Positions 12,996 through 52,774 are shown, numbered from the stretch's first letter. The stretch is DNA of 64,000 bases from Promethearchaeota archaeon (GCA_048940925.1 JBHLOC010000016.1:1-64000), one strand, 5' to 3'. The notes: generated by a model from the letters alone, not told the origin. A program made the numbers and translations.

Positions 12996-14156
12996 ATGAC
13001 CATTAATTTAAAATCTGAACATATCTATATAGGCCCAAAAGCTTTATTTGATCCATATTATGTTCCTCCACTTTTATTACATAGAAAAAAAGAACAAGAA
13101 TTATTGTATTCACTCTTAATGGATTCTATTTCAGATGAGTTTTGTGTTAATATACTTTATCAAGGAATAGACGGAGTTGGGAAGAAAGCAGTTGTAAATA
13201 AAGTAGTTAATGATATTTTACTTCAAAATGAAGAGTATATGAAGATTTGTAAAATATGTATCGATTGTAAAGAAAAAAATTTTGAGGAAATGATTTTTTC
13301 ACTGATATCTGATTTACTCTTCTTTTCAAATAGAGAATTTAGCATTGATTCAATTTTAAATTCAAATCGCTCACATATCTGGAATATATTTAAATTATTG
13401 TGTCAAAAAAGTAATTATCGCTTTATTTTTATATTTAACAATGTAGAGTATCTAAAATCTGAACTTTGCAAAAAATTTCTCCATTTTGGAAAAGAAGAAA
13501 ATATTTCTATAATATCAACTGTAAATAAAATGTTAAGGCCAAATACTATTGATATTTTAAAGGAATTCGATTTCAAAAATAAACTAAATTTCTTTACTTA
13601 TAATGAACTTTACTCTATTCTAAAACAAAGAGTTATGTTGACTTTCTCACATCATTTAGATGATGACCTAATTAAATATATTACTGATTTGGTTTGTGAG
13701 CAATATGTACCTGTTCCCGGGAAGGGAATTGAAATTCTTCGAGATCTTTATCCGATATTAAAAGGTAAGAAGAATTATAAAACTTTTGAAGTAATGGAGA
13801 ATTGTCAGAGTCATTTTGATCAATCCCACATATTCGACGAATTCAATATGTTGAATTATATTTCTGAAGAAGATTTGTTAAATATCATTTTTTTAGATAA
13901 CCTTTCAAATTTTTTTACCAATACAATGGATTATTATATATCTGTGGACCAATTACAAGAATTATTTAATATTTCTTGTGAATCTTTGGATTATAAAAAG
14001 GATTTAACTGAATTTCGAACTATAACTAAAGGATTATTAAATATTGGAATTTTAAAACTCTCAAAGCAAGATCCTTATTCAAAAAATGATTTTTATTATA
14101 TGCTGATAAGCCCTCATCAATTAAAAGCTATAATTGATACTGTTTTTAACAACTAA
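12996..14156 (+). CDS. Cdc6/Orc1-like AAA+ protein with degenerate Walker motifs
   Basis: FDPYYVPPLLLHRKKE N-terminus, GIDGVGKKA, FIFNNVE, FTYNELYSILKQR, C-terminal winged-helix-like region. Confidence 0.72.
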   Translation: MTINLKSEHIYIGPKALFDPYYVPPLLLHRKKEQELLYSLLMDSISDEFCVNILYQGIDGVGKKAVVNKVVNDILLQNEEYMKICKICIDCKEKNFEEMIFSLISDLLFFSNREFSIDSILNSNRSHIWNIFKLLCQKSNYRFIFIFNNVEYLKSELCKKFLHFGKEENISIISTVNKMLRPNTIDILKEFDFKNKLNFFTYNELYSILKQRVMLTFSHHLDDDLIKYITDLVCEQYVPVPGKGIEILRDLYPILKGKKNYKTFEVMENCQSHFDQSHIFDEFNMLNYISEEDLLNIIFLDNLSNFFTNTMDYYISVDQLQELFNISCESLDYKKDLTEFRTITKGLLNIGILKLSKQDPYSKNDFYYMLISPHQLKAIIDTVFNN

Positions 14157-14327
14157 TATTTATATATTTCAAGAAAAAATTTCGTAATTCTTTAAAAATT
14201 ACTACACTCTAATAATTCATAAAAATAGAATAATAGCATCAGATTTTTTTATATACAAAACATGCCTATCATATATATAATCGTTTTACTCTATTTTTAA
14301 TAATAAAGGAAGAAATGGAGAAAAATT

Positions 14328-17300
14328 TTGACTTATATTAAGAAAATTTCCATGACGGGATTCAAATCATTTGGAGACCGTACTGTAACAATCAAACTTT
14401 CAAGTGGTTTTACCTGTATTGTAGGTCCAAATGGAGCAGGAAAATCTAATATTATAGACGCACTGTGTTTTGCTTTAGGTAGATTGAGTAAAAAAACAAT
14501 GAGAGCAAAAAGTTTAGAAGACCTAATATTTGCAGGTTCAAGAGGAAAAAACCCTTCTCAGAGAGCAACGGTAACAATGTATTTTGATAATTCAGAGAAT
14601 GTTTTCCCCGGAGGTACAGAATCTTTTGAAATCACTCGTACTATAAAAAGAGGAGGTGGTGGCGGTTATAAGATGAATGGAAAAAAAACTACTCGGCAAC
14701 AGATTCTCAATGCTTTAGCTGCTGCAAATGTTGATCCCGATGGTAGTAATCAATTCGTTTTACAGGGAAAAATTGTAGAATTGACACACATGAATGCAGA
14801 AGAACGAAGACAATTTATTGAAGAACTCATTGGACTTCAAAAATATGATGAAATGAAAGATGTTACGTTAAAAGAATTGGAAAAAGCAGAAAGAGATTTA
14901 GGACAATTCGAAGCAATTTTTAAAGAAGTATCTTCTCAACTCAAAAAAGTTGAAAAAGAAAAGAATGATGCGTTAGCATGGAAAGAACTGGATGATCACG
15001 TGAACTTTTTGAATTCACAGTTAATAGCTTTAAAAATTTCAAAATTAAGAGAAGAAGAAGATGAATTAGAAAAAAAAATAGAAAATTCTCTAAAAATTAT
15101 CGAAGAATTGGAAGAAAAAATTGTTAGACAAGAAGATTTGCTAAAACAAGAATCACTTGTGATGGATAATATTCAACTTACAATAAATGAAAAAGAAAAG
15201 GAGAGAGAGGAAATAACTGAGAATATAACTCAATTAAAGACTAAAATTTCTTCAAATCAAACTACATTAAATCTAGCTAATAAATCAATTGAAAAATTGA
15301 CACAAGAAATAAAAAATTTAGAAAATTTACAAATGGAGCTTGAAGAAGGACAATCTATTGATTCCTTAATAGAACAAGCTACAAATGAGATTTCTGAATG
15401 TGAAAATTTTATTGAAGGATCTAAAAAGGAAATAGAAAAAAGACAGCAGATACAAGCTGAACTAGAGACAAAAATAAAGACAAAAGAAGAAGAAAAATCA
15501 CAATTTCAATCTGAAATCTCAAGTATTAAACAAAATATATCATCTAGTAAAGCACAAACAAAAGTTTTGAGAGAAAATATTAAAAAGAATGAAGATAAGA
15601 AAGTTAAATTAGAAAATGAATTGAATAAATTAAAAAGGGATGCAGAAAGTATAGATGATGCAATAGAAGATGCAAGAAAGGCAGAAAAGGAAATTCGAAA
15701 ACAAATTGATAATTTAAAAGTTAAAGCCTCTGAAGAAAATCAAAATAGAAAAGATTTGGAAAATAAAATAAATTCACTTCAACAAGAAAAAAATAATTTG
15801 AACAATAATCTTGGAAATATAAGGTCATCTTTATCGTCTTTAAATACTGAGATTAATATGAATAACAATAGAATTCAAGATTTAAATAAGAAAAAAATTT
15901 CAATCGAGAAGAAAATCCAGGAATTAAGCAAGGGTAAAGATACTGAACAAGTTGTTAAAGAACTGTTAAAAGAAAATGAAGATGTTAATAAAGTATTAAT
16001 AGGATTAAGAGCAAAATTAAAGGAAGAAAACTCAATTTACAAAAAAAATGAGCAGAATCTAGAACTTTTGAAAATGAAAAAATATTCTCTTGAGTCTGAA
16101 ATTAATGATAATAAAGGAAAAATTGACAATATTAATACTGAACTAAAAATATACTCAAAAGAATTGACTAAATTGGAAAGAGAAAAGAATAATTTAGACT
16201 TACATGTGAATGAACTAAAAAATAATCTTTCAAATACTGAAAAAGATATAGAAAAATTCAGTTTAAGAAAAGAAAACATCCAAAGACGTTTGGAAGAACT
16301 TAAGAAAGAAAGGGAGACCCTCTTAAAAAAAATTGAATCTTCAGAAGAAGAATATGAGAAGAATACGGAAGATATAACTGGAATCTTACAAATTTTAAAT
16401 ATGCTTACTCAAAATATCAATATATCAGTTGAATCTATAAAAAGTAATATACAACAGGCAAATGCTGAAGCAATAGAATTATCTGCTGAAGATTTCAAAA
16501 AATTTGTATTAGATATTGTAGATATAATGAAAACAATCGAAACACTAGGTAGTGATACAGAACAAACTGCCGAGATGTCAGAAATGCTCAGCTCGATATT
16601 AGAAACACTAAGTTTATTTACAGAAAATGCTGATTCTACAATTAATCAACTCATTGAAAGGGTAAAAGAATCTGCTGATGTAGAAGTTCAAACATCAACT
16701 ACTACTTTTGATAGTTTTGTGCAAGATCTAATGGAAATTCTTGAAAATGTATATTTATCTTTAAGAAAGTTAACTATGTCCAAGAGTCAAGAACTATATA
16801 AACAACTAGAAGATATTTCTGAAAATATTAGTGCTCAATCTGATGATTTTAATGATGTTGAGAAAAAATTTACAGGAAAAAATGTACAAAATCAACATAG
16901 TACAGAGAAGCTTTCAATTTCTATTCGTAGACTCGAAGAAATTACTAAAAGAATTCAAGAATTAAATACAAGAAGTTTGAAATCAGAAGAAGAAAACAAA
17001 GATAGAAACACGATTATAAACGAAAGAAAAAAAGAAATTGAAAGTTTAGATATTGAAATTGAAAAGTTAATAGAGCTTAAAGATAAATATTGGGATAATA
17101 TATCTCAAATCCAAGATGATATCGAGAAAAAACAAACAGAATTAGAGACTTTAAGAATAAAGTTACAAGAATTACATGGAATTCAGAACTTATTCGAAAA
17201 TATTACTGAAATTGATGAAAATATACAAAAATTAAATAGTGCAATAGATGATAAAAAGAATTTGATTATTAATACTGAAAATAGTATTAATAAAATTCAA

Positions 17301-18782
17301 GAAGAGCAAAATTCTATTCAAAATGAAATTGATACTTATACTATACAAAAAGAAAAATTTTGGGAGATAACAGAAAAAATCCAGAAGCAAATTGAAGATA
17401 AAAATAAGGAATTAGAAGAAACTATGGATCGTCTTAGGGCACTGGAAAATGTAATGAGAATTATCAATTCAATTGAGGATATTAAAAAGGAAAATATTGA
17501 TGCCAATAATAGTATTGAACAGTGTTTGAAAGATGTTGAAGTTTTCAACTCTCAAGTTGATGAAATTCAAAAAAATGTTGATCAAAGACAAGAAATAATA
17601 GATTCTCTTAGAAATGAAAAAAGTAAAGAATTGGAATTACAAAAAAAAGCCCAAAAGCAATTGAACAAGCTGAATAAAGATTTACAGAAACACCAAGGAA
17701 AATTAAATGAATTAAATAAAAATAAAGAAAGAGAACAGAAAATTATAGAATTAGGTGTAGAGATACAAGACACTGAAAAACAAGTAGAATCCACTTTAAA
17801 CGAATTAGAGAATTTTAAAGAAGAATTAAATAATGAAAATGAGAAAAAGGACAATAAGCAAAATGAAATTGATAATTATGTCCAAGAAAAAGATCAATCA
17901 TGGAAAAAACAAAAACAATTCCAAAAAATAATTACAGATTTGAAATCAGATCTGTCGATGGAAAATTCAAAAAAAAATAACTTTGAATCTAAGAAAATTA
18001 TATGCGCAGATCAAATAGAGACTTTGTTTCAACGATCCAAGGAATTTGGCTCATTACCAAGGGTAACCGAAGATTTATCAGAACCAGGGTTACAATCTGA
18101 AATAGTGGAAGCAACAAAGAAGAAGAAAGCTCTCGAACCTGTGAATTTAAAGGCAATTGAACAGTACGATGCAGTTAAAGAAAGATTTGATGAAATTGAC
18201 ATGCGTAGACAGACAATACAGAGAGAAAGAAAATCGATTTTAGATGCAATAGATAAAATAGAACTTGAAAAAACAAGAACATTTATGAAAGCATATCATG
18301 AGATTAACCGAGAATTTAGTATGATTTTTCAAAAACTCAGCCCTGGTGGTTCGGCCAAAATGATTTTAGATCGTCCTGATAAACCTTTTGAGGGTGGAAT
18401 TAGTATTGAAGCTAGACCTCGAGGTAAAAAAATATCTAGCCTTGAAATTCTAAGTGGAGGCGAAAAAACACTCGTAGCACTCTCGTTTATCTTTGCTGTT
18501 CAGGAATTTTATCCAGCACCATTTTATGTTATGGATGAGATTGATGCAGCCCTTGATGGTCCTAATGTGCATAGAGTAAGCACAGTAATTCAAGAATTTT
18601 CAAAACAAGCACAATTCCTTGTAATAAGTCATAGGGAAGAAAATATTGTGAATGCAGACCGCATATATGGAGTTTCAATGCAGCAAAGTGGAATTACTGA
18701 TATTTTTAGCGTAGATTTAGAGGAGGAGGCTAAACGACTCTTAGAGCTTGAAGATATTGAGCCTACAATTACAGAAAATTAA
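14328..18782 (+). CDS. smc: chromosome segregation protein SMC, elongated, without a recognisable canonical hinge
   Basis: GFKSF, Walker A GPNGAGKSN, Q-loop VLQG, PVNLKAIEQY, signature LSGGEK, Walker B MDEIDAALD, ISHR; long coiled coils; TTG start after GGAG. Confidence 0.95.
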   Translation: MTYIKKISMTGFKSFGDRTVTIKLSSGFTCIVGPNGAGKSNIIDALCFALGRLSKKTMRAKSLEDLIFAGSRGKNPSQRATVTMYFDNSENVFPGGTESFEITRTIKRGGGGGYKMNGKKTTRQQILNALAAANVDPDGSNQFVLQGKIVELTHMNAEERRQFIEELIGLQKYDEMKDVTLKELEKAERDLGQFEAIFKEVSSQLKKVEKEKNDALAWKELDDHVNFLNSQLIALKISKLREEEDELEKKIENSLKIIEELEEKIVRQEDLLKQESLVMDNIQLTINEKEKEREEITENITQLKTKISSNQTTLNLANKSIEKLTQEIKNLENLQMELEEGQSIDSLIEQATNEISECENFIEGSKKEIEKRQQIQAELETKIKTKEEEKSQFQSEISSIKQNISSSKAQTKVLRENIKKNEDKKVKLENELNKLKRDAESIDDAIEDARKAEKEIRKQIDNLKVKASEENQNRKDLENKINSLQQEKNNLNNNLGNIRSSLSSLNTEINMNNNRIQDLNKKKISIEKKIQELSKGKDTEQVVKELLKENEDVNKVLIGLRAKLKEENSIYKKNEQNLELLKMKKYSLESEINDNKGKIDNINTELKIYSKELTKLEREKNNLDLHVNELKNNLSNTEKDIEKFSLRKENIQRRLEELKKERETLLKKIESSEEEYEKNTEDITGILQILNMLTQNINISVESIKSNIQQANAEAIELSAEDFKKFVLDIVDIMKTIETLGSDTEQTAEMSEMLSSILETLSLFTENADSTINQLIERVKESADVEVQTSTTTFDSFVQDLMEILENVYLSLRKLTMSKSQELYKQLEDISENISAQSDDFNDVEKKFTGKNVQNQHSTEKLSISIRRLEEITKRIQELNTRSLKSEEENKDRNTIINERKKEIESLDIEIEKLIELKDKYWDNISQIQDDIEKKQTELETLRIKLQELHGIQNLFENITEIDENIQKLNSAIDDKKNLIINTENSINKIQEEQNSIQNEIDTYTIQKEKFWEITEKIQKQIEDKNKELEETMDRLRALENVMRIINSIEDIKKENIDANNSIEQCLKDVEVFNSQVDEIQKNVDQRQEIIDSLRNEKSKELELQKKAQKQLNKLNKDLQKHQGKLNELNKNKEREQKIIELGVEIQDTEKQVESTLNELENFKEELNNENEKKDNKQNEIDNYVQEKDQSWKKQKQFQKIITDLKSDLSMENSKKNNFESKKIICADQIETLFQRSKEFGSLPRVTEDLSEPGLQSEIVEATKKKKALEPVNLKAIEQYDAVKERFDEIDMRRQTIQRERKSILDAIDKIELEKTRTFMKAYHEINREFSMIFQKLSPGGSAKMILDRPDKPFEGGISIEARPRGKKISSLEILSGGEKTLVALSFIFAVQEFYPAPFYVMDEIDAALDGPNVHRVSTVIQEFSKQAQFLVISHREENIVNADRIYGVSMQQSGITDIFSVDLEEEAKRLLELEDIEPTITEN

Positions 18783-18806
18783 ATATTGTTGAAATGGTGA
18801 TTAATA

Positions 18807-19805
18807 ATATCAGAAGACCAAAAGCCAGAAAAAAAGTATAATTTTAGCCAGTGGATAGTAAAAGATTTAAGAGAATTTGCCTCCAAGAATAATATAAAAA
18901 TTCCATCAAAATCTAAAAAGAAAGATATCATAGAATTGTTAGAAAAAATTGTATCACATCCAGAATTTGTTGATCGATCTGAAGAACCAGAAGAATTGGA
19001 GGAAGAGCTAATAGCAGATTTTGATGACGAGGATGATCTTGCTTTATTAAGGAAAGAAAAAATGGATCTAAAATTTTGGCAGCAACCCCCATTTTCCAGT
19101 TTATTGGATACAGAATTAGCTAAAGAATCAGATATAGCTTTTTATGATTTAGCTAGTCTAGTTGATGAATTTTTCGATAATATGCTTCACGAAGATTTAA
19201 TTAACTATAAGATCTCCGGAATTGCATTAAAGACTTCAGCATCATTACATCATTATAAAATTACTAGTATAATAAAAGAAGAAGAACAAATTCAAAAAAA
19301 AGAAGAATTAGAACGATATCGACAAAGACATAGCAGATCAATACCAAAAGCTCTACCCCAACCAATACAACCTAAAATGCAAATTGCTACAAAGGAGGAA
19401 TTGTTTGATGCTATGAGATCTGCTATAATAGAAGTAATGCAAAGTAAAGAAAAATTAAAAAGAAGGAGGATGCGAAAAGAAGAATTAAAACAACAAAGAA
19501 TACAATTGAGATCAAAAGCTCAATTACCAAAAGAACTTTTAAAACACATTAGTGGAAAAGATCAGACAATTGAAGAGTTACATGAATCATGGTATAACAG
19601 GATAAAAGCTACAATTAATTTAGATGATAAAGAAACGAGTTTTTTTGATTTGACAAAAATTATTAAAGATGAAGAAGAAACTAGCATAGGTAGGAAATTT
19701 ATTTTAGTAAGGATGTTTTTAGCTTTAATGTTTTTATCCACAGGAGGTAAATTGAATTTATCTCAAGATGAAGATTTTAAGAATATATCTATAGATTTAA
19801 AATAA
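18807..19805 (+). CDS. scpA: kleisin ScpA with N-terminal HeH/SAP-like module; probable ATA start upstream of the track's TTG
   Basis: N-kleisin DLASLVDEFF...INYKISGIALKTSASL and C-terminal FLALMFL..GKLNLSQDEDFKNI; lies between smc and scpB. Frame is open from 18801, with GGTGA at 18796-18800. Confidence 0.85.
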   Translation: MSEDQKPEKKYNFSQWIVKDLREFASKNNIKIPSKSKKKDIIELLEKIVSHPEFVDRSEEPEELEEELIADFDDEDDLALLRKEKMDLKFWQQPPFSSLLDTELAKESDIAFYDLASLVDEFFDNMLHEDLINYKISGIALKTSASLHHYKITSIIKEEEQIQKKEELERYRQRHSRSIPKALPQPIQPKMQIATKEELFDAMRSAIIEVMQSKEKLKRRRMRKEELKQQRIQLRSKAQLPKELLKHISGKDQTIEELHESWYNRIKATINLDDKETSFFDLTKIIKDEEETSIGRKFILVRMFLALMFLSTGGKLNLSQDEDFKNISIDLK

Positions 19806-19831
19806 AATAATTATAGACAAATTAAAATCTC

Positions 19832-20737
19832 ATGAATAATTTAAACAAAAATTTAAAGGAAAATCCAGAGGAAGAACCTCTCGAAAATATTGAAGAAATC
19901 TCTGAAGTAGTTTCAAATGAAGGGAATGAAGCAGAAGAAATTAAAGAGAGTGATCAACAGGTTAAAGAAGTTTCTATTGATGAAGTCAGTAAAGATGAAT
20001 TCGGTATCGATGAGAAAGGAGATACTATAGAAGAAAAATATGGGGATATTGAAGATGAGTATATAGAACGTGAAAATTTAGAAAATCTTGATGAGAGTGT
20101 TGAACTTAAACCTTTAGAGAGTGAACCGCTAGAAGAAGTATCATTAGAAGTACAACTCAGAGAATTTCATAGGAACTTAATTGAAGCTTCATTATATGCT
20201 GCAGGCAGGCCTCTGAGCATCGAAGAAATTTCGAATAAGTTAGAAATATCTAAAAAAGAAGTAGAAGAATTAATTAATTTGGTTGCTTTTGATTATATGG
20301 AACGATCGACAGCATTAGTTATAGCTCAAATTGGGGATAGATACCAAATGCAGATTAAACCAGAATATACAGAAAAAGTTTCTAAATTTGCTAAAGGAGG
20401 AGCTATTGCAGAGCGATATTTAAGAACCTTGACTATTATAGCTTTAAAACAACCAATTTTAAAATCAACCGTGGTAAAATTAAGAGGATCTGGAGCATAT
20501 GAACATGTAAAATATCTAATTGATAATGGATTTATAGATGCTGTCAAAAAAGGAAGAACTCATGAGTTAACTACAACAGATAAATATTCTGATATGTTCG
20601 GATTGCCGAAAGATAAAATTGAATTGAAACGTGTTATGATTAAACAATTAGGGGTAGAAGAAGTTACAAGTAGCGAACAACCAGAAGAAATTGAAGATGA
20701 ACAGAACATAGATCAAGAAAAATTAGACAAAGAATAA
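19832..20737 (+). CDS. scpB: kite subunit ScpB with long acidic N-terminal tail
   Basis: IEASLYAAGRPLS, LRTLTIIALKQPI, LRGSGAYEHVKYL, TTDKYSDMFGL. Confidence 0.92.
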   Translation: MNNLNKNLKENPEEEPLENIEEISEVVSNEGNEAEEIKESDQQVKEVSIDEVSKDEFGIDEKGDTIEEKYGDIEDEYIERENLENLDESVELKPLESEPLEEVSLEVQLREFHRNLIEASLYAAGRPLSIEEISNKLEISKKEVEELINLVAFDYMERSTALVIAQIGDRYQMQIKPEYTEKVSKFAKGGAIAERYLRTLTIIALKQPILKSTVVKLRGSGAYEHVKYLIDNGFIDAVKKGRTHELTTTDKYSDMFGLPKDKIELKRVMIKQLGVEEVTSSEQPEEIEDEQNIDQEKLDKE

Positions 20738-20754
20738 ATCCAATTGTTAACAAT

Positions 20755-23355: not shown

Positions 23356-23537
23356 TTTAGACTCTAGCTAGAAGAATAATAAATATAAAAATACATAATA
23401 TTTGATAACTTTATAAGATTTATTTAAATCTAATCTAAAAACTTCAAGAAATTAATTACAGGTTAAAAAATGAATAAGTAAAAGAGAACTCAAATCTTAA
23501 ATTTTTAATAGCTTTTTCATTTCTGATCTACTTTCCT

Positions 23538-26285: not shown

Positions 26286-26373
26286 TTTTAATCAAATATA
26301 ATGAAATTCTTAATGTGAAACTAATACTCTGATTGATTTTGAAATTAAATATTGGTTGTTTTTTATCTATAAA

Positions 26374-30966: not shown

Positions 30967-30970
30967 TTCT

Positions 30971-35817: not shown

Positions 35818-35826
35818 GTTATAAAA

Positions 35827-42188: not shown

Positions 42189-42203
42189 AAAGGGTGAATA
42201 ATT

Positions 42204-43391: not shown

Positions 43392-43906
43392 AAATTTTTC
43401 TTAAAAAAGATGGTGGAGCTGTTCAATTAATTGATAAAGAAAAAATGCAAGAATGGCCTGTTGAACTTCCCTTAATTTTTATTGAATACATTCGAAATAA
43501 TCAATTAAAAAATTATGATGATGCGAAAGTAAGAGTAGAATTAGAGAAGTACCTTGATGAAATTTTAAAAGACGTGGCAATACCTAGATTGATAGGCGTC
43601 TTAGAAGGAAACAATATAGAAGAAATCATTTTAGCTCTAACGAGAATTGAAGAAATTTCAAAAAATAAAATTGAAATGGTTAAACCAATTAAACCTTATT
43701 TGGAAAAATTATCGGAGATGAAAAATACTCAAATTATTAAATTAACCCAAAAGATTTCAAATAATTTTCAAAAAGCAGAGAGAAGAAAAGAGTTAATAAA
43801 AAAAAGAAAAATAATGCGCGAGAAAGAGAAATTATTCTTAGAAGGAAAAATAAATGGACAAGAATATGCAAATGCTAGAAAGGAATATTTAACATTGAAA
43901 GATTAA
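43388..43906 (+). CDS. hypothetical protein with HEAT-like repeat and C-terminal SHOCT-like motif, translationally coupled to top6A
   Basis: ATGA overlap at 43388-43391; AIPRLIGVLEGNNIEEIILAL; LEGKINGQEYANARKEYL. Confidence 0.65.
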   Translation: MKIFLKKDGGAVQLIDKEKMQEWPVELPLIFIEYIRNNQLKNYDDAKVRVELEKYLDEILKDVAIPRLIGVLEGNNIEEIILALTRIEEISKNKIEMVKPIKPYLEKLSEMKNTQIIKLTQKISNNFQKAERRKELIKKRKIMREKEKLFLEGKINGQEYANARKEYLTLKD

Positions 43907-43917
43907 TTTTAATTCAT

Positions 43918-44598: not shown

Positions 44599-44622
44599 CT
44601 ATAAGAGAGATATTAATACCAT

Positions 44623-45195
44623 TTATGTGTTTGTTAAAAAAAAATCTCGCCAGATTTTTATCAAATTATAAATAAATTTATAAAGTAACTTTTCAGATAT
44701 TGTTAACCTTCTCTCATCTTCCAATGATAATTCTGCTTTGGATAACTTCAATAATTTAAGTAATCTTGTATCAATTACGCTTGCTGTATATGAATTAAAT
44801 CTATCAAGATCAATTACTGGCTTTTTTTTGAGTTTAATATCATTTTCTATAAATATTTTGAACTCCTTAATTTTGGTCAATAAGTAATTATTATCCAATC
44901 TAATCAATTTAGGGTCATCTTTTTCCCTTATAGCATATCGTTGAACATCAACACTATCACATTTATCAGACTCATCTACTTTTAAGATCTCATCTTCAAT
45001 AAAAGGAATAGCAGAAAACATTTTTAGCTTATATTTTTTTCCTTTTTCAAAAGGACCAAAAGATTCCCCTAATAAAGTAAACCCGTTATGACTTTTAATA
45101 CAATCTGTATTAATTTTTTCATTTTTAAAACTAAATTTAATTCTATTTAGTGAACTTGCTAATTGGTCTTCGAACTTTTCCAATAATTCTCTCAC
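44623..45195 (-). CDS. GINS complex subunit, Gins23/Psf2-like (B-A domain order)
   Basis: N-terminal FGPFEKGKKYKL beta domain; C-terminal RLLKLLKLS...LTISEKLLY..I...IKIWR; near mcm. Confidence 0.68.
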   Translation of the reverse strand: MRELLEKFEDQLASSLNRIKFSFKNEKINTDCIKSHNGFTLLGESFGPFEKGKKYKLKMFSAIPFIEDEILKVDESDKCDSVDVQRYAIREKDDPKLIRLDNNYLLTKIKEFKIFIENDIKLKKKPVIDLDRFNSYTASVIDTRLLKLLKLSKAELSLEDERRLTISEKLLYKFIYNLIKIWRDFFLTNT

Positions 45196-45290
45196 CAGAT
45201 TTAATAAATTAAAAAATCTTTATATAATATACAGAAGTATTTCAAGAGAATTAAATATCATATTAAATTATTAATATTCTACCGATTTGA

Positions 45291-48200
45291 GTGATATTAT
45301 TGATTTTAGAAATAATTTTACTTATAATATTTATTGCCTTTTTCATTTTTGGTTTTTATATAATTTTCAGACAAGTTTCATTAGTTAAGAAAGGCGAATT
45401 CAATATAAAAGATCGTCTTCAATGTGTGGTTTATGGAATCATTTTTAGTATGGCAGTTATGGTTGTAATTACAGTTGCCTTTATATTCACCGTAAAAACA
45501 CCCGAATTTTGGGAAACAACGCCCCCCGAAGTACATCCATTAGCATTACTTATACCTTTTACATTCTGTTTAGTTTATATTTCATTATACCCCCTTGTCG
45601 ATTTTCTTTATATTGCTTTAAGTAAAGAGTCAGATGAGGGTTTAACACCCTTTCATAAATTTATTAGTGAACATATAATTAATAGATTTAAGAAAAAATC
45701 TCTTGCAATCATATTTGCTATAATCTTTTTTGCTTTAGTTTTTTTTCTAACTCCTCTTCTTTTAGTACTTATTGGATTGCCTTTTATAATTGGATGGTTA
45801 ACTTTTGTGCTTATATACCCTTTAATGATATTAACATATTATGGTTCTAAGGGATATATTGCTGGAATTTCAAATGTTTATTATCATATTCCCGATATAA
45901 GAAGGTCTATATTTCTTAATTTTGAAGATAGTAAGAGAGGAATGAAGCAATTTGCTTCTAATCCAGGACCATATATTGTTTTTGGATTAATGTTATTTGT
46001 TTTTATATGGGCATGGTTTTCTTTAATCCAAACAATTGCTTTCTTTTTTACAAAATCTCTAGCAATATCAACAATGTCTTCCATATTTGTATTTGTAACC
46101 CTTTTTTTTGGAATAATGGGATATTTCACCCGTTTTTGGGGAAGAAAGATAAAATATCGAGGAATAGATATTTATTTTGCTGCTTATCTTATGGCAGCGA
46201 TAGGAATTAATGTTTTAGTCAATTTTTTAATAGTAAATCCAAATAAATTATTTTATACTTTTAATTTATGGAATTTAACGAACCAAATAGTACCCAATTA
46301 TTATTTATTAGCTTGGGCAGCAGCAATTGAAGAAATAGTATTAGTTATTTTCACATCATATTACTTTTTAGCTAAAAAAAATGAATTTTTAAGAAATATT
46401 CGTTATTCCAGTATCACTAAAAGTGGTCAAACCTTTGATCCAATCCCATTATTTAACCTTATCAAAAATCAAGATCTTAAAATAAGAAAACATGCAGAAG
46501 AAACTCTAATTTTAATGTTTGAAAGAATTCCTCTTAAATCTGATATAAATCTAAATGAATGGAAATATAAATATTTAATATTTGATGGGTTATGTGATTC
46601 TGATCCAAATTCAAGAAGAATATCTTACAAAATTTTGACCCAATTAGAGGAAGATGTTCCAGATATTATATTACCTTGGATAATTGAATCATTAAAATCT
46701 CCAAATTATGATAAAAGTATCCCAATATTAAGATCTTTATTAACAATAGATATAAATCTTTTAGAAAAATTACCAAATGATTTGATCCTTAGTCTTATTG
46801 AAGATACTGAATGGAGAACTCGAATATTAGGATTGAAAGTAATATCTCGATTACTTGATAAAAATAAAGATTTAATTGAATATTTAAATATTATAAAATT
46901 AATAAATGACCCCAATAGTAAAGTTCAAGTAGAAATTCTTAAAATCATTTCTAATTCTTCTTTGATACTCCCTATTGAAATAATATTTGATAAAATTAAT
47001 CATTCAAATAAGGAAATTAGCTCAATAGCTATTAAAAGCTTAAAAAATCTTGAAATAAAGGAATTTGATCCTAAATTAGTTCCACAAATCGTTCCATTAA
47101 TGAAAGATCCTTCTAGTTTAATTAGATCATCCATATTTGGTGTATTTGCCAAAATTGGAAATTTTAAAAAGTATAAAATTCCAATTTTACCATTTTTAGA
47201 AGGATTAACTGATTCTAATGAAAATGTTAGAAATTCTGCAGTATTAGCACTTGAAAAATATTATACCGAACAACCTTCTTCCTTAGATCTAGATTTAATA
47301 ATAAATAAAATTGATCCAAATAATTATGATCAGTTGAACAGTATTATAATTTTACTTGGTAAACTATGGGAATTTAATCCGGAAAAAATATTAATGACAT
47401 TATTAAATTACATAAAAATTGAAAGTGAAAAATTACAAGAAGATATTTCTAAAATCCTAATTGAAAAATATATCAAAAATCCCGATTTGATAATTGGAAA
47501 TTTAATTAAAGTTCCCGATATTTCTAAACATATTACTAAGGGTATAATATCAAGAACAATAATTAATATTGGTAAAAGATATCCTAATAAAGTAATTCAA
47601 AAGTTACTCTCTTATCTGCAAAATGAAAATGACAACATAAGACTAAATGCTATTATCTCACTAGAAGGATTAGTTGATGAGTTCAATATAATTATTGAAA
47701 TAAAACCAATAATAGCATTATTACAAACCGATAAAAATAATCAAATAAAGAAGGAAGCTTCAAAAGTTATATCGGAAATTGCTAAGAATGATCCTTCTTT
47801 AATAAAACCATTTATTTCTGAATTTATTCAAGCATTTAATAAACAAGAATTATCAGTAAAGATCGTTCTTTCTAAATCATTATTAGATATAGCAAAAGTT
47901 TCTCCAGAAATTATTCCTATTAGTAATATTATTAACTTTATTTCAGATTCAGATTCTTTCATTCGTGAGACAAATACAAAAATTTTAGGATTAATAGGAT
48001 ATAAACTTCCTTTACCTGTTATAGACGTTTTAATAAATCAAGCTTTAAAAGATGAAGAATGGATTGTCAGAGAAGCAGCCATTTCAAGTTTAGGAAAAAT
48101 AATTGAACATGTAGAGAAAAAGGAACATATTATTAAGAAACTTATTCCCTTACTTAAAGATGATCAAAATTGGGTCCGTAGAACTACAATGAACATTTTA

Positions 48201-48638
48201 TCAAATATTAAGGAAGTCAATGAAAAACAAATACCGTTTGAGATCATACTTCAAAATCTATCCAGCGAAGACTCTAAAGTTAGGGAAGCAGCAGCAAACT
48301 TAATTAAAATATATTGGAATCAAATTAATGATATATTCGATCACCTAGTTCTATTATTAGATGACTCCTCTAAAGAAGTAAGATCAAGTATAATCAATAG
48401 TTTTGTAGAGATAATTCAAAAGTTAGGACTTAATCAAATATTGTCAAATTTATTAAAGAATCTTAGTGATGAAGGTTCCCTAGAAAGTCAACGTTCAATA
48501 GCAATAATTCTTGGTAGAACTGTGAAATATGAAGATGAAAAAATTAAGAAAAGAGTTATATCTTTATTAAAAATAAGATGTGAAATGAGTCAAGATCCAG
48601 TAATTTGTGGAATTCTTCAACAATTAAAAGAAAATTGA
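45291..48638 (+). CDS. polytopic membrane protein (~8-9 TM) fused to a long C-terminal HEAT-repeat solenoid
   Basis: Hydrophobic helices in aa 1-360; repeated L.D....VR..A...L units from aa ~385 to the end. Confidence 0.85.
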   Translation: MILLILEIILLIIFIAFFIFGFYIIFRQVSLVKKGEFNIKDRLQCVVYGIIFSMAVMVVITVAFIFTVKTPEFWETTPPEVHPLALLIPFTFCLVYISLYPLVDFLYIALSKESDEGLTPFHKFISEHIINRFKKKSLAIIFAIIFFALVFFLTPLLLVLIGLPFIIGWLTFVLIYPLMILTYYGSKGYIAGISNVYYHIPDIRRSIFLNFEDSKRGMKQFASNPGPYIVFGLMLFVFIWAWFSLIQTIAFFFTKSLAISTMSSIFVFVTLFFGIMGYFTRFWGRKIKYRGIDIYFAAYLMAAIGINVLVNFLIVNPNKLFYTFNLWNLTNQIVPNYYLLAWAAAIEEIVLVIFTSYYFLAKKNEFLRNIRYSSITKSGQTFDPIPLFNLIKNQDLKIRKHAEETLILMFERIPLKSDINLNEWKYKYLIFDGLCDSDPNSRRISYKILTQLEEDVPDIILPWIIESLKSPNYDKSIPILRSLLTIDINLLEKLPNDLILSLIEDTEWRTRILGLKVISRLLDKNKDLIEYLNIIKLINDPNSKVQVEILKIISNSSLILPIEIIFDKINHSNKEISSIAIKSLKNLEIKEFDPKLVPQIVPLMKDPSSLIRSSIFGVFAKIGNFKKYKIPILPFLEGLTDSNENVRNSAVLALEKYYTEQPSSLDLDLIINKIDPNNYDQLNSIIILLGKLWEFNPEKILMTLLNYIKIESEKLQEDISKILIEKYIKNPDLIIGNLIKVPDISKHITKGIISRTIINIGKRYPNKVIQKLLSYLQNENDNIRLNAIISLEGLVDEFNIIIEIKPIIALLQTDKNNQIKKEASKVISEIAKNDPSLIKPFISEFIQAFNKQELSVKIVLSKSLLDIAKVSPEIIPISNIINFISDSDSFIRETNTKILGLIGYKLPLPVIDVLINQALKDEEWIVREAAISSLGKIIEHVEKKEHIIKKLIPLLKDDQNWVRRTTMNILSNIKEVNEKQIPFEIILQNLSSEDSKVREAAANLIKIYWNQINDIFDHLVLLLDDSSKEVRSSIINSFVEIIQKLGLNQILSNLLKNLSDEGSLESQRSIAIILGRTVKYEDEKIKKRVISLLKIRCEMSQDPVICGILQQLKEN

Positions 48639-48811
48639 GACCAAATTTATTTTTAGTAAGTAGAAAAACTAAAAATCAATAAATCCTCCACCTGTCTTTT
48701 GGTTTATATAATTATTTATTTACACTTTAATAAAATTATGTGATTAATACTAAGGATTATAAAATTATCAAAATTAATTTAGGCAAATTGAAAAAAGTGA
48801 TATGATTATTA

Positions 48812-50935
48812 ATGACGACACCTATTTCAACCTCTACTCAACCAATTAATAAAATTCAACGCTTTGAAGATTTTTATCGTTTATTTCAAGAAAGACCAGG
48901 AGTATATAAATATCAGGATCAAATAAATGATATCGTCTCAAAAGGAGGAAATTCACTGATTATTCTTTATGAAGATATACTCGCTTTTGATCCTCAAATT
49001 GCTGAAATGCTGAAAAATGATCCTGAATCTTTATTAGAAGATGCGATAGATGCATTTAAAAATATTTTAAAATTTCAGGGTGCATCAATAAATGATCAAA
49101 GATTTTTTGTTAGACTAACAACTAAAGATAAAAAATCTCCTCTGTTAGTTCATTTAAGAATGCTAAGAGCAAAGCATATTGATAAAATGACTTGGTCTAA
49201 AGGAATTTTAGTTAGAAGTTCTGCGATTAGACCAAAACTAGTAAATGCTACATTCGAGTGCAATTTATGTGGCGCCCAATTTGAAGTAATTCAATTAACA
49301 TCGAAGATAAGATGGCCAAAATTTTGCACTAACAAACGATGTAAAGCAAAAACCCAATCAGACTTCCGACTGATATCAAAAAAATCTGAGTTTATTGACT
49401 GGCAAAGCGTTATGATCCAAGAAATCCCTGAAGATTTGCCTCCTGGGAGAATTCCTAGATCCATTCAAGCATTATTAACATATGATTTAGTAGATTCTGT
49501 CAAACCGGGAGATAGAGTTAATGTGATGGGAATTTATAAATCTGTTTTAGCTCAGTCAACTAAAAGTATCAATTCAACTTTATTCAAGACTTATATAAAT
49601 GTTAATTTTATTGATCCAGAAGATAAAAGCGATGATACTATTGAACTTTCTAAAGAAGATAAAGAAAAAATCGAAAAATTATCAAAAGAACCAATGATCC
49701 AAAAAAAGATAGCACGTTCAATTGCTCCAAGTATTTATGGTAGAGACAAATTAAAAATGGCGTGTGCCTTAAGTTTATTTGGAGGAACAAGAAGAAAAAA
49801 ACCAGGTGGAGGATATAAGCGGGGAGATATTCATTTCCTTATGGTAGGGGACCCTGGTACAGGAAAGTCTGTCATTTTAAAAGGTGCAATAGAAGTTTCT
49901 CCTAGAGGATTATATACTTCAGGTAAAGGTTCCACTGGAGTAGGATTAACTGCTGCTGTAATAAAAGAAGCAGAAACAGGTCAAATGAGCCTTGAAGCGG
50001 GTGTTGTTGTGCTGGCTAATGGAGGTGTTGCTGCAATTGATGAATTTGATAAAATGGACACAGCAGATCGCTCAGCGCTGCACGAAGCAATGGAACAACA
50101 AACTGTAAGCATTGCTAAAGCCGGAATAGTAGCCACATTAAAAGCTCAAACAGCAATTATTGCTGCTGCGAATCCTTATTCTGGTAGATATGACAGATAT
50201 AAAACTCCTACACAAAATATCCGTTTGCCACCTTCTCTTTTATCTCGTTTTGATTTGATTTTCGTTGTTGTAGACAGACCTAATCCTTCTGAGGATGCAC
50301 AAATGGCTGAATTTATTTTAAATAATTCCATGGTTGGACCAGAAGATACCTTTGAAGAAGAAGATCTTATCTCTCCAATTGATAAAGATATTCTTAAAAA
50401 ATATGTTAAACATGCAAGAAGAACATGTTTTCCTACTTTAACTGATGAGGCAAAAGAAAGAATAAAAGAATTTTACTTAGAATTACGTGGTCAATATGAA
50501 AGTGAAGATGCAATTATTTCCATTTTAGCTAGAAATCTGGATGCTCTTGTTAGATTGTGTGAATCTCATGCAAAAATGGCATTAAGAGATAATGTAATAA
50601 AAGAGGATGTAGAAGAAATTATAAAATTATTTAAAAAATATCTTAAGGATACTGGTTATGATGAAACGACTGGAAAGATTGATATGGATAGAATTTTTGT
50701 TGGACAATCTAGAAGTAACCTTAATAAACTTGAAACGTTAATGAATAGATTAAAAGAAATTTTTGAAGAAAATAATTGGAAATCAATAGAGAAAAATAAT
50801 ATAGTTCAAATCTTAGAATTAGAAGAAAACTTAGATAAAAAGTTTATTGAAAATGCACTTGAAGAATTGATTAAAGAGGGAACAATATATGAACCCAGGA
50901 ATGGATTTATCAGATTTACAAATAAAACAGAATAA
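48812..50935 (+). CDS. mcm: replicative helicase MCM
   Basis: Zn finger CNLC..CTNKRC, GDPGTGKS, IDEFDKM, AAANP, SRFD, C-terminal winged helix; no intein. Confidence 0.97.
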   Translation: MTTPISTSTQPINKIQRFEDFYRLFQERPGVYKYQDQINDIVSKGGNSLIILYEDILAFDPQIAEMLKNDPESLLEDAIDAFKNILKFQGASINDQRFFVRLTTKDKKSPLLVHLRMLRAKHIDKMTWSKGILVRSSAIRPKLVNATFECNLCGAQFEVIQLTSKIRWPKFCTNKRCKAKTQSDFRLISKKSEFIDWQSVMIQEIPEDLPPGRIPRSIQALLTYDLVDSVKPGDRVNVMGIYKSVLAQSTKSINSTLFKTYINVNFIDPEDKSDDTIELSKEDKEKIEKLSKEPMIQKKIARSIAPSIYGRDKLKMACALSLFGGTRRKKPGGGYKRGDIHFLMVGDPGTGKSVILKGAIEVSPRGLYTSGKGSTGVGLTAAVIKEAETGQMSLEAGVVVLANGGVAAIDEFDKMDTADRSALHEAMEQQTVSIAKAGIVATLKAQTAIIAAANPYSGRYDRYKTPTQNIRLPPSLLSRFDLIFVVVDRPNPSEDAQMAEFILNNSMVGPEDTFEEEDLISPIDKDILKKYVKHARRTCFPTLTDEAKERIKEFYLELRGQYESEDAIISILARNLDALVRLCESHAKMALRDNVIKEDVEEIIKLFKKYLKDTGYDETTGKIDMDRIFVGQSRSNLNKLETLMNRLKEIFEENNWKSIEKNNIVQILELEENLDKKFIENALEELIKEGTIYEPRNGFIRFTNKTE

Positions 50936-51030
50936 TTTTTTGTATCTTTTATGATTGATTTGATTATATAGAAATTTACTTTTTTTAAAATTCATACTTT
51001 ATTAATTAATTTAAGTACTCTAATAGAATC

Positions 51031-51561
51031 TCAATTATCATGAAAATATTTAATTGCTCCCTCCGAAATTGTTTTAAATGCTAATTCTACATTATCCCCT
51101 GTTTTTGCTGAAGTATAAAAAGTTGAAATTGAATTTATTCGTCTGCCTAAAGAAGTGATTTCTTGTTCAGTTAATTCTTTTACCAAATCATTTTTATTAG
51201 CAAGTAATGATATTGGAGCAGAAGGACAATAGTGTTTCATATCTGGAAACCAGAAGTCTTCAATCTGAATAAATGTATTTTTTCTTGTTAAATCTCCAAC
51301 TAAGAGTATACCTTTAGCTCCAGCATAATACGCATTCCTCATTTTAGTCCAACGTTCTTGCCCAGCAATATCCCATATTTGAAGCGTTACTTTAACATTG
51401 TTGTTTAAGATAATATTTTTAATATATATATTTGTACCAATACTTGAACGATAATCTCTTGAAAATTGACCCGAAACAAATTTCTTAACTAAACTTGTCT
51501 TACCAACTGCGGGATCTCCAATTAAAATGATTTTTAGTGTAAATTTCTTGATGTTGCTCAT
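51031..51561 (-). CDS. Rab-like small GTPase, no C-terminal prenylation cysteine motif
   Basis: GDPAVGKTS, SSIG, IWDIAGQE, YYAGA, NKND, TSAKTG. Confidence 0.92.
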   Translation of the reverse strand: MSNIKKFTLKIILIGDPAVGKTSLVKKFVSGQFSRDYRSSIGTNIYIKNIILNNNVKVTLQIWDIAGQERWTKMRNAYYAGAKGILLVGDLTRKNTFIQIEDFWFPDMKHYCPSAPISLLANKNDLVKELTEQEITSLGRRINSISTFYTSAKTGDNVELAFKTISEGAIKYFHDN

Positions 51562-51679
51562 ATATAATATATTTTATGAAGAAAGTTTTTTAAGTTTATA
51601 TGTAAATAATAAAATAATTAAATTCTAAAAATAAATCAACGAAGTTTGAATTTAAAAAATGGGAAAGTGATTATTTTTT

Positions 51680-52774
51680 ATGACTACAGGTATAGTATAT
51701 GATGATATTTATCTTGAACACAGAATTGGAACCCATGTTGAAAGTCATTATAGACTCATTGAAATTATGGAATTCTTAAAAAGTAAAAAGATATTTGAAA
51801 ATCCAAACTTTAAATTAATTAAACCCAGACCCGCTACCCTAGATCAAATTAGATATGTGCATGAAGAAAGATTAATTAATGAAGTTCGAGAAATCAGTGA
51901 TTTAGCAGAAAAAACGGGTCGTATTCAAAGTCTTGATATGGACACTGATGTGTCTTCCAAAACATATGAAGCATCCTTGTACTCTGTCGGAGGTAACTTA
52001 CAAGCCGTAGATGAGATTTTGAGTCAAAATATAAAAAACGCCTTCGCATTAGTAAGACCTCCTGGACACCATTCCAATTCTTATAAATGTGCTGGTTTCT
52101 GTATATTCAATAATATCGCTATCACGGCAGAATATCTCTTTAGAGAAAAGAATGTAAACAAAGTCGCAATAATAGATTGGGATTGTCATCATGGTAATGG
52201 AACACAAGATATTTTTTATCATGGTTCGAAATCTAAAAATGGGCAATTAATTATGTTTAACTCTCATCAGGATGGTAGAACACTATACCCTGGAAGTGGT
52301 TATATTGGAGAAATAGGTTCAGGAAAAGGAGAAGGCAAAATAATTAACTACCCTATGCCCCCTAACTCAGCTGATGATGCAATCATTATTTATTTTGATG
52401 AAATTATTTTACCGATCTTATCAGAATTTAAACCTGAATTTATTCTTATTTCTGCAGGTTTTGATACCCATTGGACAGATGATCTCACAAATATGGGTTG
52501 GACAATTCAAGGACCAGCAAATTATTTAAAAAGGATCAAAAAAATCGCAGAAGAATATTCAAATGATCAAATATTAATCACTCTAGAGGGAGGATACCAA
52601 ATTGATAAACAAGCAAGAGCAGTATATAATTGTTTAAGAGTACTTAATAATGAAGAAGAAAACTTAGTTCTTGAAAAACCTAGATTATCAGAACAAGCAC
52701 TATTAGATTATTTAAAAAAGAAACTAATTCCTGCATTAAAGGATAGATTAAGTCCTTATTGGAAATGCTTTTAA
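51680..52774 (+). CDS. Zn-dependent histone deacetylase family protein (class II-like)
   Basis: RPPGHH, GFCIFNN, DWDCHHGNGTQDIFY, SAGFD, LEGGY. Confidence 0.93.
   Translation: MTTGIVYDDIYLEHRIGTHVESHYRLIEIMEFLKSKKIFENPNFKLIKPRPATLDQIRYVHEERLINEVREISDLAEKTGRIQSLDMDTDVSSKTYEASLYSVGGNLQAVDEILSQNIKNAFALVRPPGHHSNSYKCAGFCIFNNIAITAEYLFREKNVNKVAIIDWDCHHGNGTQDIFYHGSKSKNGQLIMFNSHQDGRTLYPGSGYIGEIGSGKGEGKIINYPMPPNSADDAIIIYFDEIILPILSEFKPEFILISAGFDTHWTDDLTNMGWTIQGPANYLKRIKKIAEEYSNDQILITLEGGYQIDKQARAVYNCLRVLNNEEENLVLEKPRLSEQALLDYLKKKLIPALKDRLSPYWKCF

Follow-up and report, generated by a model that had tools for sequence, protein, structure and literature searches.

SMC complexes and type II topoisomerases are known to cooperate, as MukB does with Topo IV and condensin with Topo II. 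Some SMC-like ATPases, including RecN and Rad50, do not dimerize through a hinge, and use a coiled-coil apex or a Zn hook instead. In archaea, replication origins usually adjoin orc1/cdc6 genes. Some Asgard genomes have been described as carrying two or three SMC operons (Yoshinaga & Inagaki 2021, PMC8665677; van Hooff et al., bioRxiv 10.1101/2024.01.07.573240), and neither of these papers mentions a condensin-type Smc without a hinge; in the papers that were searchable, we found no description of a hinge-less Smc or of an HeH module common to kleisin and Top6B.

We analyzed a 64,000-nt stretch of DNA from a Promethearchaeota archaeon (the window), in which positions 12996-52774 had been proposed to encode a lineage-specific, possibly membrane-tethered apparatus for chromosome condensation and decatenation. 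The original prediction listed an inactive Cdc6/Orc1, a long SMC with a replaced hinge, an HeH-bearing ScpA, an acidic-tailed ScpB, a giant Top6B with HeH and winged helix, a Top6A with a coupled partner gene, a GINS gene, a membrane-anchored HEAT solenoid, an MCM and an HDAC, with unrelated genes interspersed. All 10 of the 10 items were located at their predicted positions within 40 kb, each with the oddity ascribed to it (the GINS gene by a weak match), and the unrelated genes were also found. We think it likely, nevertheless, that the region is not one system, and that it reflects family-level gene order in a Lokiarchaeia-type Asgard chromosome, composed of housekeeping modules that act separately and include two order-specific remodeled machines, Smc-ScpAB and Topo VI.

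A condensin operon with a helical apex in place of the Smc hinge

Smc, kleisin and kite are encoded side by side in an smc-scpA-scpB operon with the following features:

14328-18782, + strand: long-armed, condensin-type Smc without a hinge, 1484 aa (SMC_N 127 bits, TIGR02169 621 bits)
16329-16853, + strand: Smc apex domain, residues 668-842, a tandem duplication of a ~61-residue helical unit that replaces the hinge
18807-19805, + strand: ScpA-type kleisin with an N-terminal HeH, ATA start at 18807, 6 nt after GGTGA
18840-18950, + strand: HeH/SAP/Rho_N-type module of the kleisin (Rho_N 22.6 bits, HeH 19.5 bits)
19832-20737, + strand: ScpB (kite) with an acidic N-terminal extension and an acidic C-terminal tail (PF04079 E 1e-33, residues 116-260)

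The Smc heads match the Pyrococcus Smc head (PDB 5xei, E 3e-121), and the head motifs GPNGAGKS, LSGGEK and MDEIDAALD, read directly, are intact (Walker A, signature and Walker B). In a head tree, the long Smc proteins form a 100/100 clade that groups with canonical archaeal Smc heads, apart from the SMC5/6-like copies. A search of the isolated middle of the protein at E<=10 gave no Pfam hinge match (PF06470), no PDB hinge chain matched, and an HMM that we built from 13 Asgard hinges, run with --max, matched 0 of 14 long Smc proteins while detecting its positive control, the SMC5/6-like paralogues, at 18-26 bits. The duplicated, all-helical apex occupies this position: its halves A and B aligned to each other with an hhalign probability of 97.9% (E 4e-13), versus 0.4-3% for control alignments against the arms. 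Each arm is ~500 residues long versus the usual ~330 (about 1.45x length). An AF2 model of residues 560-960 is a long antiparallel intramolecular coiled coil of two continuous helices, the chain turning back near residues 744-748; pLDDT is >90 along the arms and only 53-80 at the apex. The apex is 65-90% identical in >120 proteins, and a search of 1.84 billion representatives returned only 39 matches. The two apex hairpins of an Smc pair would probably associate in a four-helix bundle to form the dimer, and Smc-ScpAB would then act as any Smc-ScpAB loop extruder.

The same genome encodes an SMC5/6-like copy on contig C7; no third Smc was found in it, and no canonical hinge-bearing paralogue was found in the window's genus. 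A canonical Smc of ~1195-1205 aa (PF06470 E~1e-33) is present with a short ScpB in genera g11 and g14 and in family f2, and genera g1, g10, g12 and g13 have the long Smc and the SMC5/6-like copy only. The long Smc is the sole condensin-type Smc in the window's genus, and the canonical paralogue survives in sister genera.

With Pfam alone, the kleisin gives a weak Rad21_Rec8 match (E 0.039). Profile-profile comparison with canonical Asgard ScpA (hhalign 99.7%, E 1.6e-26, 219 columns) supports homology across both the N-terminal helical and the C-terminal winged-helix parts. Its HeH lies upstream of, and in frame with, the program-called TTG start, and is seen only if the gene is read from a conserved non-AUG start: ATA, ATT or ATC in 10 of the 11 genus loci read, the window's own included, and ATG in the other, placed 6 nt after GGTGA. 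The N-terminal extension carrying the HeH is aligned and conserved in 18/18 genus relatives searched. The module would add a DNA contact near the Smc neck, and the AUA/AUU/AUC start probably holds kleisin synthesis low. By charge profile, ScpB is acidic at both ends, with D+E contents of 35% in residues 1-115 and 33% in residues 263-301.

A Topo VI with an enlarged B subunit

The genome has one type IIB enzyme, Topo VI, whose genes lie downstream:

38814-42188, + strand: Top6B, 1124 aa (NF003218 318 bits, cut-off 274; transducer PF09239 E 1e-28)
41706-41828, + strand: HeH module in the Top6B tail (Rho_N 25.2-26.8 bits)
41988-42185, + strand: C-terminal winged helix of Top6B, 66 residues (AF2 H-b-H-H-b-b, pLDDT ~88-90)
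42204-43391, + strand: Top6A, single copy (Toprim E 8e-58, TP6A_N E 1e-16)
43388-43906, + strand: small ARM/HEAT-like partner protein, its ATG overlapping the top6A stop as ATGA

Top6B, also single-copy, contains a GHKL ATPase and a transducer domain and is paired with Top6A, whose gene begins 15 nt downstream. Three inserts have been added, as the charge profile shows: the first is acidic and lies in the GHKL domain, the second is basic and coiled-coil, and the third is again acidic. The protein also has a flexible C-terminal tail that ends in the HeH and the winged helix. The best Foldseek matches of the terminal domain were all wHTH proteins (Sso10a-2, YodB, ArsR family, Z-alpha) with probability ~1.0 and rmsd 1.4-2.7 A, and the E values were only 0.02-0.2 because the domain is short; 17 of its columns are invariant across families f1 and f2. 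The inserts and the tail, HeH and winged helix included, would provide extra DNA contacts, plausibly helping capture of the second duplex.

The partner gene is translationally coupled to top6A through the ATGA overlap and always adjoins it (25/25 genomes in f1, 2/2 in f2). Its profile matches designed armadillo repeats (E 1.7e-12). In 3 genomes it is broken by 2-5 stops (pseudogenized), and the partner is dispensable in some species.

The HeH modules of both machines were scored against curated cut-offs of 24.9 bits for Rho_N and 28.9 bits for HeH. With Rho_N, the Top6B module is just above the cut-off and the kleisin module below it; the HeH model gave 17-19.5 bits on these two modules and 25.5-28.3 bits on a protein encoded on contig C4, all under its cut-off.

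Replication genes and a membrane-anchored HEAT protein

The remaining genes that had been drawn into the proposed apparatus are:

12996-14156, + strand: degenerate Orc1/Cdc6 paralogue, the fourth copy in the genome (TIGR02928 E 8e-14, 51 bits, cut-off 181)
44623-45195, - strand: Gins23-like protein (NF053565 E 6e-7, 29.5 bits, cut-off 120), divergent from the next gene
45291-48638, + strand: polytopic membrane domain (residues 1-360) plus HEAT-repeat solenoid, hereafter TM-HEAT (HEAT families E 1e-20 to 1e-34)
48812-50935, + strand: MCM helicase with the ordinary domain set (MCM, MCM_OB, MCM_lid, MCM_N)
51680-52774, + strand: HDAC-family deacetylase (PF00850 E 2e-87)

Compared with the three bona fide Orc1 genes of the same genome (contigs C40, C13 and C41), the local paralogue has a Walker A of GIDGVGKK (T->K) and a Walker B of FIFNN (DE->NN) and has lost the sensor-2 Arg. 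It is homologous to Orc1/Cdc6, and is predicted to be ATPase-dead and not a functional member of the family. The weak Gins23 match aligns residues 50-183 to positions 21-154 of 159. Residues 1-360 of TM-HEAT contain 8-9 hydrophobic segments and precede the HEAT repeats, and the divergent pairing of its gene with gins23 is kept in g11 and in the f2 genome G019. It would be an order-specific membrane protein whose stable neighbors are replisome genes, and the dead Orc1 paralogue, Gins23, MCM and the deacetylase would be neighbors through synteny.

Distribution and gene order of the remodeled genes

The original prediction had proposed a check on whether the Smc hinge replacement, the two HeH modules and TM-HEAT co-occur across Asgard genomes. 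In a 151-genome sample of the phylum, the non-canonical Smc apex was present in 23/25 f1 and 2/2 f2 genomes, and the Top6B tail, TM-HEAT and the Top6A partner were each present in 25/25 and 2/2. Among 123 genomes of other families, the Top6B tail was found in none, and the apex, TM-HEAT and the partner gave single weak matches only; the Top6B tail and TM-HEAT also occur in families f3 and f4 of the same order. Within this sample, the four features have the same distribution and are confined to one order. The traits named in the proposed check do occur together. All traits fall in one clade; therefore, their co-occurrence amounts to one evolutionary event and lends no independent weight to coupling, and inside the clade the HeH varies on its own. 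Genus g10 (apparently part of g12 too) has the HeH on the kleisin and lacks it on Top6B. In g11 the kleisin carries a Zn-ribbon and Top6B no more than a plain P/K linker, and in f2 K/S/T-rich basic tails are found instead on all three of kleisin, Top6B and Top6A. In these comparisons, the module is gained, lost and swapped independently on the two proteins. The common HeH would be a promiscuous DNA tether and not a matched tag.

Within the family, related and unrelated genes alike keep their order, and in g11 the same stretch is collinear, including a tRNA synthetase, CoaBC, a transglutaminase and others. The 40-kb co-location is ordinary family-level synteny, largely dissolved in the sister family; in f2, the 40 kb on either side of smc lack Top6, MCM, HDAC and the Orc-like gene. 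What stands of the predicted lineage-specific deviation is that Smc-ScpAB and Topo VI depart from standard archaeal versions in an order-specific way; their union in one apparatus is not supported, given that the synteny is general and the HeH varies independently.

Several observations count against separately acting modules. By our rough estimate, the ~6-7 DNA-metabolism transcription units of ~15 in 40 kb are denser than chance. The smc and top6B genes are linked in f1 (13-38 kb across five genera) and f3 (~10 kb), and one genus of f2 has TM-HEAT at 14-16 kb from smc. Only four proteins of the 4.8-Mb genome bear an HeH-type module, and the kleisin and Top6B are two of them.

The best-surviving alternative, although an unlikely one, is that the similar HeH (and winged-helix) modules bring Smc-ScpAB and Topo VI to the same DNA, where the two would work together and tie compaction to decatenation by analogy with MukB/Topo IV or condensin/Topo II. 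The two HeH modules are identical at 15/37 residues (~40%, hand count) and of one subtype, for which our own HMM found three bearers in the genome, both machines are remodeled in the same order, the 10-38 kb linkage holds in f1 and f3, and in f2 all three proteins share one kind of tail. However, HeH presence is uncoupled between the machines, the same module occurs on a gelsolin-like protein, smc and top6 genes are never in one operon and have unrelated genes between them, and the linkage is lost in f2.

We regard as improbable a grouping of initiation, helicase, segregation and decatenation genes near a replication origin for dosage or timing. An Orc1-like gene, gins23, mcm, smc and top6 do lie within 40 kb, but this Orc1 is degenerate, the three intact genes lie on other contigs, the window has neither a long AT-rich intergenic gap nor an ORB-like repeat family, and the cumulative GC skew climbs across it without a turn. 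Similarly improbable is a broader arrangement in which the hinge-less Smc-ScpAB of this order is coupled physically on DNA to the tailed Topo VI and, through TM-HEAT, whose gene lies between gins23 and mcm, perhaps also to the replisome; if true, such coupling would represent an archaeal, membrane-anchored forerunner of the condensin/Topo II chromosome axis.

Least probable is that TM-HEAT is a kleisin-associated HEAT subunit (a proto-HAWK) anchoring the SMC complex and chromosome to the membrane: it has the order-wide distribution of the long Smc, is encoded 14-16 kb away from smc in genus g2 of f2 and ~27 kb away in f1, and matches Cnd1, Adaptin_N and SCD models, but those are generic HEAT cross-matches (the SCD match without a significant stretch), the complex already has its kite in ScpB, genus g5 of f2 does not have TM-HEAT near smc, its constant neighbors are gins23 and, in f1, mcm, so that its tightest linkage is not to smc, Atlas yielded no lead, and a published search did not find HAWKs in prokaryotes (bioRxiv 10.1101/2024.01.07.573240). 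A tie between TM-HEAT and the SMC complex is not supported, and neither is the membrane-tethered part of the proposal.

Comparison with known systems

The two remodeled machines can each be set beside a described counterpart. Plant Topo VI has the accessory proteins RHL1 and BIN4, of which the extra small partner here is reminiscent; the partner is ARM/HEAT-like, however, with no similarity to RHL1 or BIN4 detected, and some species dispense with it. The enzyme shares GHKL, transducer, Toprim and 5Y-CAP domains with Topo VI (Top6A2B2) of Methanosarcina and Sulfolobus, from which it differs by three inserts and an HeH-WH tail that make its B subunit twice as large. The HeH modules resemble SAP/HeH/LEM/Rho_N modules in their ~35 residues, two helices and conserved extended loop, and match the Rho_N and HeH models, with only Top6B on Rho_N above the cut-off, but here they are found on an archaeal kleisin, Top6B and a gelsolin-like protein, and their DNA binding is only predicted.

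As in archaea with SMC5/6-related or duplicated SMC complexes, the genome has an SMC5/6-like copy, whereas the long Smc groups with canonical archaeal heads. Like RecN and Rad50, the long Smc has a non-globular apex at the end of its coiled coil, through which it would need to dimerize; in contrast to them, it has true Smc heads, no CxxC hook, and a kleisin and kite as partners rather than Mre11. The likeness is one of possible mechanism and not of homology. The closest counterpart is prokaryotic condensin Smc-ScpAB (B. subtilis, Pyrococcus; TIGR02168/02169; PDB 5xei, 4i99), with which this complex shares the ABC head with intact Walker A/B, signature and Q-loop, the operon order, an ScpA-type kleisin and a ScpB kite. 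It differs in having a duplicated helical hairpin for the alpha/beta hinge, longer arms, a kleisin with an N-terminal HeH and a non-AUG start, and acidic extensions on ScpB, and in that its Smc, a paralogue beside the canonical protein in some genera, here serves as the only condensin-type Smc.

Gene content of the window

The original prediction had read a group of DNA-metabolism genes in this window as one integrated, possibly membrane-tethered chromosome-organization system, comprising an inactive Orc1-like protein, an unusually long Smc with ScpA and ScpB, a Topo VI with an enlarged Top6B and a coupled partner gene, GINS, a membrane-anchored HEAT-repeat protein (TM-HEAT), MCM and an HDAC. 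Pfam and NCBIfam scans of the window, which has a G+C content of ~28%, identified every one of these genes (the NCBIfam match to Gins23 is weak but consistent), and the peculiarities ascribed to them were confirmed. The Orc1-like protein is a degenerate, fourth paralogue in the genome, with a T to K change in Walker A, DE to NN in Walker B and loss of the sensor-2 arginine. A replication origin in the window was considered and rejected, given the lack of ORB-like repeats, a long intergenic gap or a skew turn. The window also encodes Ras-, Rag- and Arf-type GTPases, which, together with the Lokiarchaeota/Promethearchaeota labels attached to close homologues, assign it to Lokiarchaeia-type Asgard archaea, and a Rag/Gtr1-type and a Ras-family GTPase, both typical eukaryote-signature genes of Asgard archaea, flank the region:

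11866-12846, Rag/Gtr1-type GTPase
14328-18782, 1484-aa condensin-type Smc (long Smc), first gene of smc-scpA-scpB
20755-26285, minus strand, tandem Val/Ile/Leu-type class I tRNA synthetases, both full-length (866 and 915 aa)
33469-35817, 782-aa ORF with no Pfam match
43388-43906, plus strand, partner gene coupled to top6A
45291-48638, plus strand, TM-HEAT
51031-51561, Ras-family GTPase
Interspersed unrelated genes (Pfam/NCBIfam): two class I tRNA synthetases, glycyl-radical enzyme, DNA methylase, MoxR-VWA pair
Further interspersed unrelated genes (Pfam/NCBIfam): PHP protein, CoaBC, phosphoribosyltransferase, Ras-like GTPase

One genus of the host family (g11) has a counterpart at the same place for only one of the two tandem synthetases.

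The long Smc carries a helical apex in place of the hinge

Every true SMC protein is regarded as defined in part by its hinge, which is also considered important for its mechanism. The heads of the long Smc score 621 bits against TIGR02169 and match the Pyrococcus head 5xei with an E value of 3e-121, and all ATPase motifs are intact. No hinge was detected among PDB sequences, and the isolated middle third had no Pfam match at E values up to 10. Our own HMM, built on hinge sequences taken from 13 Asgard Smc proteins, scores these proteins at 196-295 bits; it still picks up distant SMC5/6-like copies at 18-26 bits, providing a positive control, and detected none of 14 long Smc proteins. Residues 668-842 instead form an apex of two homologous helical units of ~61 residues each, and these two halves of the apex align with one another by hhalign at 97.9% (E 4e-13; control segments from the arms, 0.4-3%). 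AlphaFold2 modeling of residues 560-960, using a 13-sequence alignment, gave two continuous helices with a turn at ~744-748; pLDDT exceeds 90 along the arms and is 53-80 at the tip. Over 120 proteins, 1474-1487 aa long, share the apex at 65-90% identity, yet among 1.84 billion representative proteins no more than 39 match its profile. A Rad50/SbcC identity was rejected because the head scores far higher on Smc models, the protein has no CxxC motif, and ScpAB is encoded adjacently.

Two apex-type helical domains also occur N-terminally in a second family of 920-1,180 aa (P0135, P0137, P0138 and P0142; for example G019:C26:18475-19077), ahead of a middle part rich in beta structure and a K/A/P tail resembling histone H1; this family was not found in the host genome.

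Across 151 sampled genomes of the phylum, 23 of 25 from the host family (f1) and both from a second family of the order (f2) have the apex, with only two marginal matches elsewhere (E 7e-5 and 7e-4). The two f1 genomes lacking a match, G086 and G136, were not counted as losses because their assemblies are only 91-93% complete. Direct reading also placed the apex in another family of the order, f4; the copy in family f3 is partly masked. Besides the long Smc, genera g11 and g14 and family f2 possess a canonical Smc of ~1195-1205 aa that has a hinge and is accompanied by a separate short ScpB, while the host genus (g1) and genera g10, g12 and g13 show only the long Smc and an SMC5/6-like gene, which in the host genome lies at:

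C7:48645-52124, SMC5/6-like gene, with three neighbors that have no Pfam match

At three loci (L028, L029 and L030, on G173:C10, G019:C3 and G164:C139), the hinge-bearing smc paralogue of sister genera is followed directly by the short scpB, with no scpA between or beside them, the position occupied by scpA in the canonical operons of other Asgard families. A tree of the heads recovers the long Smc proteins as a clade (100/100) whose internal branches are short, within the canonical archaeal Smc group; this tree does not resolve the relationships between clades, such that the orthologue of other Asgard Smc proteins could be either the long Smc or its Lokiarchaeial counterpart with a hinge.

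The kleisin and ScpB have lineage-specific extensions

Profile comparison identified the kleisin as ScpA (99.7%, E 1.6e-26). Its reading frame runs on upstream of the mechanically assigned TTG start, and the extension, which aligns in 18 of 18 genomes of the genus, encodes a helix-extension-helix (HeH) module. At the head of this frame (window 18789-18809), an ATA codon lies 6 nt beyond GGTGA, and the TGA within GGTGA is the in-frame stop. Among 11 loci from the genus, this one included, the codon 6 nt past GGTGA is ATA, ATT or ATC in 10 and ATG in one, and the equivalent codon is ATG in two sister genera. A non-AUG codon appears to serve as the scpA start. Although smc and scpA share a reading frame, a read-through fusion was rejected, since two stops (TAA and TGA) lie between them; that relatives carry an ATG start at the same codon shows that a separate scpA start is used. 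The N-terminal add-on of the kleisin differs among lineages: it is an HeH module by direct reading in g1, g13 and g14 and by HeH-query matches in kleisin-sized frames near smc in g12 and g10, a Cys/His Zn-ribbon-like motif in g11, and a K/S/T-rich basic tail in f2, f3 and f4. ScpB bears acidic extensions (35% and 33% D+E).

Topo VI is enlarged and has a co-translated partner

The genome has a single Top6A and a single Top6B. The latter has gained three inserts, two of them acidic (the first lying between the N-box and the G1 box) and one a basic coiled coil, together with a tail consisting of a linker, an HeH module scoring above the Rho_N cut-off, a basic linker and a 66-residue domain. Because a PDB sequence-profile search of the tail found nothing, we turned to AlphaFold2 and Foldseek, which predict a winged helix fold for the 66-residue domain. 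The tail is present in 25 of 25 f1 and both f2 genomes, and in f3 and f4, and is absent from all 123 genomes of other families. It includes one HeH copy in g1, g12 (G100) and g14 and two in g13; g10, g11 and f2 have a P/K or S/T/K linker instead, and several g12 species also lack the HeH, as judged by alignment ranges.

The ATG of the partner gene at 43388 overlaps the top6A stop codon as ATGA, with GGTGAT 6 nt upstream. The protein combines a small N-domain with two ARM/HEAT-like repeats, which match designed armadillo proteins at an E value of 1.7e-12, and a tail that is basic and helical. The gene accompanies top6A throughout f1 and f2; nonetheless it is dispensable, as it contains 2-5 in-frame stops in three genomes (G059:C1:85661-86071, G009:C166:19747-20175 and G017:C32:95407-95868), two of which belong to the host genus.

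Related modules occur on other proteins. In the host genome, a gelsolin-like protein of 308 aa (C4:11530-12453; L081:1031-1954), whose gelsolin-repeat match is weak (E 0.024), ends in an HeH belonging to the subtype seen on the kleisin and Top6B; a domain that may bind actin would thus be joined to what is probably a DNA tether. A fourth, SAP-like module lies at the N terminus of a SWIM-like 310-aa protein (C77:66020-66949; Rho_N/SAP type, 39.5 bits), whose CxC...CxH motif resembles a SWIM zinc finger. Elsewhere in the phylum, a Topo VI-B transducer domain occurs in open frames of 2,258-4,305 aa, versus 1124 aa here, in six other Asgard families (for example, G055:C1:2677812-2678312, G103:C1:2910392-2910892 and G065:C198:1228-1731).

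Two order-specific variants, probably not one membrane-tethered system

What the region really contains is a pair of known machines, each in an order-specific variant; that part of the original prediction stands, and there is no support for the integrated system with a membrane tether. The co-occurrence test that the original prediction proposed showed its traits to occur together perfectly, which is uninformative because all of them define the same single clade. In favor of one system are a density of DNA-metabolism units that, by a rough estimate, exceeds chance expectation, an smc-top6 distance of 10-38 kb in f1 and f3, and, in one genus of f2, a TM-HEAT gene 14-16 kb away from smc. However, gene order in one g11 genome follows that of the window from smc all the way to its end, with every unrelated gene included, whereas in f2 only smc-scpA-scpB stay together, with Top6, MCM, HDAC and the Orc-like gene absent within 40 kb on either side. 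Moreover, variation of the add-on modules on the kleisin is independent of that on Top6B, and HeH and SAP-like modules also occur on the gelsolin-like and SWIM-like proteins. Weighing these four lines, single-clade co-occurrence among them, against the points in favor, we consider functional cooperation between Smc and Topo VI unlikely and membrane tethering through TM-HEAT highly improbable.

TM-HEAT is itself order-specific; its HEAT repeats span ~700 residues and come after 8-9 hydrophobic segments. An ESM Atlas search with its membrane domain gave no lead. Its gene lies between the divergent gins23 and mcm, 174 nt downstream, an arrangement kept in g11, and the pairing with gins23 is also kept in f2 genome G019. 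Setting the integrated system aside redirects the TM-HEAT question towards the replisome genes with which it travels, and leaves attention on the two real novelties.

Asgard archaea are the closest archaea to eukaryotes. Duplicated Asgard SMC complexes have been described in two studies of archaeal SMC evolution (PMC8665677; bioRxiv 10.1101/2024.01.07.573240), neither of which mentions a hinge-less form, and a replisome survey describes Asgard Topo VI with multiple Top6A/B pairs and motif insertions, its main text making no mention of the Top6B tail. A whole Asgard order runs a hinge-less condensin-type Smc, in several genera with no other condensin-type Smc, and represents a natural experiment on the purpose of the hinge. 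Its oversized Topo VI, with putative extra DNA-binding modules and a co-translated partner, offers a second handle on how these archaea manage larger genomes.
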